A stretch of 53,981 nt of DNA from the IMG/VR virus record IMGVR_UViG_2529292919_000008; one strand, given 5' to 3'. Position numbers and translations under genes: made by a program. Origin of the DNA: a virus. Lineage: Duplodnaviria > Heunggongvirae > Uroviricota > Caudoviricetes. The notes beneath the pieces are model-generated. The model ran no database searches. It was given only the letters and a program-made list of their open reading frames with translations, and was not told the origin of the DNA. Below are positions 50,260-50,550 of the stretch, in pieces; within the stretch, counting starts at the first letter, position 1, and every line of letters starts with the position of its first letter.

Positions 50260-50550
50260 AGCCTCCTCCCGGGTCCAGAACGCACTCAGCCGGGTATGGT
50301 TCAGCCCATTTTTCCCGGCGTCTCATGCCGCAAATGTTAACTGCTGCCCGGTTAACATTTGCTGAAAAAGCCTGTTAACATTTTTTCCGCACAACAAACT
50401 GAATAATAAAGATAAAAACCGCAAAAATGCCCGGGCAGCCAGTTAACATGTTAACTGCCCTGAAACGGGAATTTTTTCTCTGCGTGAGAGGGGGCGCGGT
50501 GTCCAAAGCGATCGTTTTTTACGCCGGATGATACCCCCCCCCGGGTTGGG
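50260..50550 (-). promoter_or_regulatory. Putative cos / packaging-initiation region with GTTAAC repeats
   Basis: Five GTTAAC(AT) motifs between 50330 and 50450, located between the HNH endonuclease and TerS as in HK97-type phages. Confidence 0.35.

Follow-up and report, generated by a model that had tools for sequence, protein, structure and literature searches.

The 291-bp region between the genes for an HNH endonuclease and the small terminase subunit (TerS), at positions 50260-50550 of the 53,981-nt stretch of DNA analyzed here (the window), reads with a probability of roughly 0.7 as the cos site of a prophage, which would be cut at 50489-50498 and would carry five copies of GTTAAC as a recognition array for TerS. 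The parts of this reading differ in strength: that a cos lies in the region with its predicted cut at 50489-50498 is highly likely from homology, while the assignment of the five GTTAAC sites as a TerS binding array is probable on comparative grounds. The region is very probably an ordinary, known kind of element, a prophage cos, and its position has effectively already been published for a near-identical phage. What is new is that the repeats and a G run are placed in a conserved modular architecture.

The region is flanked by the following genes:

48005-49666, minus strand: terL, with TerL_ATPase and TerL_nuclease domains
49663-50259, minus strand: terS (PF03592 Terminase_2, E=1.5e-8, profile positions 1-56)
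50551-50916, minus strand: HNH endonuclease gene, 121 aa (PF01844 HNH, E=2.7e-7), adjoining cos upstream in the packaging direction

A sequence-only reading of the region had proposed an HNH gene and terS as its neighbors in an HK97-type packaging arrangement. Pfam searches identified both genes, which lie on the minus strand, and the order HNH, terS, terL, and prohead protease was found as in that arrangement, all on the minus strand. An HK97-type cos module is said to have been described by Kala et al. in 2014 as a 3'-overhang cos with an HNH accessory nuclease, and the placement of an HNH gene upstream of cos recurs in relatives of the window. The protease (Peptidase_S78) is encoded in a fused ORF downstream of terL; these four were the module genes identified here, with portal and major capsid genes not among them.

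The Terminase_2 match of TerS covers only the N-terminal ~56 residues (residues 2-57), which form the helix-turn-helix (HTH) part, while the C-terminal part is common to relatives that lack the HTH. A PDB sequence search gave only weak matches between this TerS and the DNA-binding domain of SF6 G1P (4zc3/2cmp). The terS and terL genes overlap by 4 bp, with the terL start at 49666 lying over the terS stop codon at 49663-49665 on the minus strand, which suggests translational coupling. Inside terS, a 27-bp unit is repeated 3.0 times with a 92% match (49730-49810, minus strand), encoding KKAAKGDAA-type repeats near the carboxyl terminus of the protein. TerS is 198 aa long here versus 187 aa in most close relatives, so the copy number of this unit appears to vary between relatives. 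On the other side of the region, between the lysis region and the HNH gene, a small ORF on the plus strand (50958-51158) gave a strong match to DUF3950 (YlcI/YnfO family, E=3e-19) and is transcribed opposite to the late genes.

The cut was placed by aligning the window with relatives whose ends have been mapped or deposited. The closest of these, E. coli phage Lys8385Vzw, is a cos phage with 3' cohesive ends CGCCCCCCCT, as determined by PhageTerm (PMC7946995); the paper gives the 10-mer only, and describes neither the repeats nor the G run (PMC7946995). Re-opened at cos, its GenBank record (MT225100) ends in ...GGACACCGCCCCCCCT and starts with CTCACGCAGAGAAAAAATTCCCG... (in a longer reading, it ends in ...GATCGCTCCGGACACCGCCCCCCCT and begins with CTCACGCAGAGAAAAAATTCCCGTTTCAGGGCAGTTAACATGTTAAC...). 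Across the cut, the minus strand of the window reads ...GGACACCGCGCCCCCT / CTCACGCAGAGAAAAAATTCCCG..., or over a longer span ...GATCGCTTTGGACACCGCGCCCCCT / CTCACGCAGAGAAAAAATTCCCGTTTCAGGGCAGTTAACATGTTAAC..., so that the record termini match the window base for base, except at one position of the overhang. As the mapped end of Lys8385Vzw is homologous to 50489-50498, the cohesive end of the window is predicted there.

Two more distant phages have their ends at the aligned position. For fLi-Aba03, 10-nt 3' ends CGCCCCCCAT were determined by PhageTerm and a heat/cool gel assay (PMC7354433), and its record ends in ...GGACACCGCCCCCCAT, with the 10-mer annotated as "3' cohesive end", and begins with CGCACGCACAAAAAAAATTCCC.... 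The record of Bcep176 carries an identical 10 nt (CGCACGTTCC) at both termini, directly 5' of CTCACGCGCAG / CTCACGCGCAGAAAATTTTCCC. When joined, the ends of these relatives align on a common core, GGACACC/GACC-(10 nt)-CNCACGCRCA-(A tract)-TTCCC, which argues that the cos call is right. The position of the 10-nt 3' end is predicted from Lys8385Vzw, fLi-Aba03, and Bcep176. Among the phages of the INPHARED set, Lys8385Vzw was the only one with record termini at the enterobacterial core. The record of phi330 was rejected as an end-mapped relative, being opened arbitrarily inside terS, and other Burkholderia phage records, which open 12-16 nt short of the core or 12-18 nt past it, do not define ends precisely and were rejected as evidence.

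The following features surround the predicted cut, with positions counted along the minus strand, positive into the left end and negative into the right end:

50489-50498, unstranded: predicted cosN, 10-nt cohesive end CGCGCCCCCT (minus strand), a 3' overhang by homology, from the aligned ends of three relatives
50467-50504, minus strand: cos core GGACAC-(overhang)-CTCACGCAGAGAAAAAATTCCC, kept in at least 12 genera
50508-50522, minus strand: A-rich GTAAAAAACGATCGC block, -20 to -34, between the cut and the G run on the right end; corresponds to GTAAACATCGATCGC, which is conserved in enterobacterial relatives
50527-50542, minus strand: G9 (-46 to -54) followed by TATCATC (-39 to -45), at the position of cosQ in lambda

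The virion left end would start at 50488 with CTCACGCAGAG..., and the left-end part of the core contains an A6 tract at +12 to +17. From the 10-nt end it is 33 nt to the first GTTAAC on one side and 36 nt back to the G run on the other. The suggestion that 50260-50550 holds a candidate cos was therefore upheld through the three relatives, but its predicted cut falls outside both the GTTAAC repeats and the C9 run.

Those sequence elements themselves were as described. Five copies of GTTAAC start at 50336, 50351, 50374, 50442, and 50450, the inverted pairs at 50330-50362 and 50440-50457 are both perfect, and the C9 homopolymer lies at 50534-50542. Relative to the cut, the GTTAAC copies start at +34, +42, +110, +133, and +148 (the array thus running from +34 to +153), and terS starts at +230:

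50440-50457, unstranded: proximal palindrome CAGTTAACATGTTAACTG, 18 bp, +32 to +49, with CAGTTAACA and TGTTAACTG abutting and two GTTAAC; counterpart of the family-wide element
50380-50431, minus strand: A+T-rich spacer between the proximal and distal sites, 65-75% A+T in 20-nt blocks, with T5 at +62 and +71 and A6 at +103
50369-50384, unstranded: distal site C, AAAATGTTAACAGGCT on the minus strand, GTTAAC at 50374-50379 (+110 to +115); repeat family D1
50330-50362, unstranded: distal sites D (GTTAAC at 50351, +133) and E (50336, +148), a 12-nt inverted repeat GCAAATGTTAAC-N9-GTTAACATTTGC, 100% complementary, with arms at 50330-50341 and 50351-50362

The window as a whole contains 21 copies of GTTAAC, versus 9.07 +/- 3.08 expected from dinucleotide-preserving shuffles. 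Five of these lie within 120 bp, where about 0.04 would be expected, and since the other 16 are scattered over about 53.7 kb, the cluster is far beyond chance. The five sites show no change in any of 80 close relatives; these are too similar to make the invariance informative, however, as only ~10 columns vary and the chance that none would fall in the motifs is about 0.25. The IHF consensus WATCARNNNNTTR had no match in 50260-50550, so that any bending of the A+T-rich spacer, which is possible given its composition, would be intrinsic.

More distant relatives were gathered in two ways. At least 120 IMG/VR contigs matched the left-end core pattern CTCACGCRCAGAAAAWWTYCC, and 21 loci from other genera were found by a scan with an alignment of TerS homologs, in which the N-terminal HTH is highly conserved. 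A scan of genome contigs with the single TerS protein gave no matches, and the alignment-based scan of viral contigs returned only the 80 close relatives again. Conservation of the core is in part a matter of construction, because loci were gathered with a pattern derived from it.

The proximal palindrome aligns with a GTWAAC/TGTTAA-TTAACA element that over 100 related loci of many genera keep at about +33 to +50. It takes the form of a near-palindrome GTAAACATGTTAAC in enterobacterial loci and of TTGTTAATGGCTTTAACAG in G+C-rich (~60% G+C) IMG/VR contigs resembling Burkholderia phage Bcep176, where it includes TTA, a codon that G+C-rich genomes use very rarely. One or the other is kept in Atlantibacter, Kluyvera, Enterobacter, Serratia, Erwinia, Pantoea, and Proteus, as well as in the Bcep176-like contigs. 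The spacer between the HNH gene and terS is short in most relatives, and the near-palindrome lies over the terS start codon (ATG TTA ACA) in about 80%, in which conservation of the motif is confounded with coding and translation signals because of this overlap. Where terS starts later (+52, +64, +75, or +150), the near-palindrome stays at +33 to +50.

Long non-coding spacers carry the motif as well, in differing flanks. Spacers of Pantoea-type loci contain two copies of GTTAACCC and a GTAAACC, with the two copies of GTTAACCC present in L102 and L150, while L108-type loci contain GTTAACC twice. Those of L133, L164, L200, and L221 combine TGTTAA..TTAACA with copies of TTTAACA, and the spacer of fLi-Aba03 has three copies of AAGTTAAA. 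Counted together, GTTAA/TTAAC is enriched in 11 of 11 long non-coding spacers (that of the window and 10 others), with 2-10 occurrences versus 0.05-0.43 expected (P<=0.006 for each).

Presence of the motif also followed the N-terminal domain of TerS. At least 2 half-sites were found at +25 to +60 in all 103 unique loci that encode an HTH-type TerS, out of 106 unique loci in all. The remaining 3 (L175, L183, and L202, all from IMG/VR), a comparison group of 3 loci from 2 lineages, have no half-sites, and all encode a TerS without the HTH. These proteins had no match to Pfam Terminase_2 and carry a Gly/Arg-rich N-terminus GRSGGARSGAGRPRKK in place of the HTH, but their carboxyl-terminal region is shared with the window phage (..YTHAKKGEGGKK..PPRLVVNN; 49% identical to the TerS of the window over 59 residues), and their TerL is homologous. 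Their cos leaders lack GTTAA motifs and keep the A-tract core. These loci behave like a natural domain swap, in which the motif would go with the HTH, and the cosN core with TerL and HNH. The family-wide position of the motif, its enrichment in spacers, and its absence where the HTH of TerS is absent together make the repeats a putative TerS array.

The start of terS appears to have moved in the lineage of the window. At 50448, the window has ATG TTA AC... where terS begins in distant relatives, with CAGGG in place of their upstream GGAGG, while the present start, GTG CTG ACA, lacks the motif. As the old ATG TTA AC... persists at 50448 and the current start is motif-free, a shift of the terS start seems to be the origin of the ~190-bp leader. 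The ATG within the proximal palindrome opens a 24-codon ORF (MLTGCPGIFAVFIFIIQFVVRKKC, 50374-50448, minus strand), which is probably left over from the displaced start and not itself a gene.

On the far side of the cut, about 100 of the 106 unique loci carry a run of five or more G at the equivalent place. HK97 has G9 followed by ATCAAATC, ending 42 nt before its right end, and both fLi-Aba03 and Bcep176 carry a G run upstream of the cut. Among the 80 close relatives its length is 6-11, mostly 7-8, part of which variation may be sequencing or assembly error at homopolymers; L175 has 10 and 19 G. The bases that follow the G run (TATCATCC...) depart from the IHF consensus. The HK97 packaging papers and the limited set of literature searched contained nothing relevant on a G tract or a GTTAAC element in such cos sites. 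In HK97 (right end of NC_002167) and many relatives, including L091, L094, L098, L099, L101, and L103, an A/T-rich block with GAAATCATTTC / AATGAT / ATCA lies between the HNH stop codon and the G run; in the window, which has no such block, the G run comes almost immediately after the HNH stop.

Several other explanations of the repeats were weighed. The cos could be real while the GTTAAC copies are functionless leftovers of duplication or recombination around an ancestral terS start (ATGTTAACA, 190 bp upstream of the GTG), with TerS reading the A-tract core (+9 to +22). The old start codon in the proximal palindrome and the 24-codon ORF behind it fit such a history, an extended unit ATGTTAACTG(G)CTGCCCGG is common to sites B and E, a pattern that duplication would leave, and the close relatives offer no significant test. 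Moreover, as HK97 TerS recognizes a single A-tract-containing 15-mer, TerS might here really bind the A6 tract at +12 to +17. We nevertheless consider this unlikely: the enrichment of GTTAA/TTAAC recurs in independent non-coding spacers whose flanks differ (GTTAACCC twice, GTTAACC twice, or AAGTTAAA three times), the motif is missing exactly where the HTH of TerS is missing despite a kept A-tract core, and the G+C-rich contigs have retained a very rare TTA codon at the terS start. A role in RNA or gene expression, with the palindromes serving as hairpins or operators for terS translation, or as promoter elements, rather than as packaging signals, is distinctly improbable. It would account for the position of the palindrome over the terS start codon in most relatives, the D/E repeat, 75 nt upstream of terS, can form a hairpin of 12 bp, and sites D and C yield one sigma-70-like match on the plus strand (TTAACA-18-TAACAT). 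That sole promoter-like match is antisense to the late operon, however, and made of the motifs themselves. The fold of the whole leader is no better than that of shuffles (z=-1.42), a terminator scan of the region found none, and several relatives have a C-to-A substitution on one side of the D/E stem with no compensating change on the other. Furthermore, the palindrome keeps its distance to the cut, not to the start codon, as terS moves from +52 through +230.

Palindromic repeats are also typical operators of dimeric regulators, and the array might bind a protein other than TerS: the HNH endonuclease, whose counterpart gp74 participates in cos cleavage in HK97, the small DUF3950/YlcI-like protein whose gene (50958-51158) is some 500 bp distant, or a nucleoid protein of the host. 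We give this very little weight, since the motif follows the N-terminal domain of TerS and not the type of HNH protein (two HNH types share it), the HNH gene stands between the DUF3950 gene and the repeats, and the region lacks an IHF consensus. Cleavage inside the GTTAAC palindromes or the C9 run is scarcely credible; two-fold symmetric palindromes often flank nicking sites, as in lambda cosN, but the three relatives with mapped or deposited ends place the 10-nt end between the two, at the distances given above.

With the repeats taken as a TerS array, the region, read on the minus strand, would work as the cos of a lambdoid prophage of the packaging type of long-tailed Stx phages and Pankowvirus. 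TerL, aided by the adjacent HNH protein as in HK97, would place nicks staggered by 10 nt at 50489-50498, leaving the 3' overhang CGCGCCCCCT and the left end CTCACGCAGAG from 50488. The five GTTAAC sites (+34 to +153) would be recognized by the HTH domains of an oligomeric Terminase_2-type TerS. Among them, the proximal palindrome may be the ancestral and primary putative TerS site, placing terminase beside cosN, while the three distal copies could represent a lineage-specific expansion in the ~190-bp spacer with its A/T-rich, probably bent linker. By analogy with R3-I1-R2-R1 in lambda cosB, the distal copies might let the DNA wrap around, or cooperatively bind, a TerS ring. More speculatively, the G9 tract about 45-55 bp before the cut would be the element met first by the incoming motor at termination.

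Taken further, the comparison hints at a widespread HNH-associated group of 3'-cos phages, from Enterobacteriaceae to Acinetobacter and Burkholderia, with a modular cos. This would comprise a G tract (maybe a cosQ-like termination or pause signal), a cosN core read by TerL and HNH, and an exchangeable GTTAA module that is read by the HTH of TerS and lost where TerS has a Gly/Arg-rich N-terminus, with the Stx lineage having grown from one palindrome to five sites over a 190-bp leader. We put this general scheme forward tentatively, as a case that stands somewhat short of even. If true, the expanded array could tune the efficiency or specificity of packaging among up to seven co-resident E. coli prophages with the same cos.

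Of 5426 complete E. coli genomes, 1272 contain the region, which occurs at 2992 places in all, up to 7 of them in one genome; 6 of the places are on plasmids. In the eight E. coli records listed, none had an annotated feature under the 291-bp region. Many long-tailed Shiga-toxin phages have it as part of their packaging module, and knowing the exact cut and the likely TerS sites would allow genomes of such phages to be linearized and annotated correctly. These sites could likewise serve to predict which resident prophages (including defective ones) or other cos-carrying elements are packaged by a co-resident terminase, and hence the spread of stx and other cargo, and to design tools for cos-plasmid transduction. 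The comparative picture also provides a testable case of DNA recognition by a Terminase_2-type small terminase in a cos system. To our knowledge, structural data on TerS of cos systems are limited to HK97 TerS, which is unrelated to this type.

Among known systems, the closest are Escherichia phage Lys8385Vzw and the long-tailed Stx phages BP-4795, 2851, 1717, and YYZ-2008, along with related E. coli prophages, whose intergenic regions are 93-99% identical to that of the window (~97% for Lys8385Vzw). Phages 2851, 1717, and YYZ-2008 belong to the genus Pankowvirus, while BP-4795 does not. Lys8385Vzw and the long-tailed Stx phages share the same five GTTAAC sites and have a TerL that is 97.6% identical; Lys8385Vzw differs by one base in the 10-nt end (CGCCCCCCCT, versus CGCGCCCCCT here) and by a G run of 7 rather than 9.

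The Acinetobacter phages fEg-Aba01, fLi-Aba02, and fLi-Aba03, and Burkholderia phage Bcep176, share a homologous cos core (GGACACC-10 nt-CNCACGCRCA-A tract-TTCCC) with an upstream G run and HNH gene. Their TerS is of the Terminase_2 type, and the stretch from the cut to terS holds either GTTAA-type repeats or a palindrome. TerL is 52% identical to that of fLi-Aba03 over 99% of its length, and 55% identical to that of Bcep176-type Burkholderia phages. However, the spacers of these phages are shorter, with terS at +40 or +73 versus +230 here, and their repeats are variants, either three direct copies of AAGTTAAA or TGTTAA-N5-TTAACA.

HK97 (HNH gp74, TerS gp1, TerL gp2) resembles the window in its order HNH-cos-terS-terL, in a 10-nt 3' overhang beginning with CGC (here by homology), and in a G9 with ATCA after it, some 42-50 nt short of the right end. 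Its HNH protein gp74 has a part in cos cleavage, and its TerS site, which has an A/T tract, lies just inside the left end at +15 to +29 (PMC11331095). In contrast to this single 15-bp site, the window has five hexamer sites over 120 bp, and its TerS belongs to another family, Terminase_2 with an N-terminal HTH; a Pfam search returned no gp1-type (P27-family) match for it. Outside the G run and ACCGCC the DNA of the two cannot be aligned, and beyond a weak TerL match (86 N-terminal residues of HK97 TerL were compared) no similarity to the HK97 module was detectable.

The cos of lambda (cosQ-cosN-cosB, the latter with R3-I1-R2-R1) has the same three parts: an element before the cut, the cut itself, and then repeats in both orientations before the gene for the small terminase, a binding role for which is putative here. 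In both, the repeats occupy the position of cosB, and an A/T-rich segment parts the proximal from the distal sites. Lambda differs in its 12-nt 5' overhang, versus 10-nt 3' ends in the relatives of this element, and in its winged-helix gpNu1, its IHF site (I1), and its lack of an HNH partner, and it has no sequence similarity to this cos. The pac systems of SPP1 and SF6 share with the window a TerS (G1P) whose N-terminal HTH belongs to the same Pfam family, Terminase_2. In SPP1, G1P binds repeated short boxes in pacL and pacR, on bent DNA. There, however, packaging proceeds by headful from pac, whereas the relatives of this element have fixed cohesive ends.
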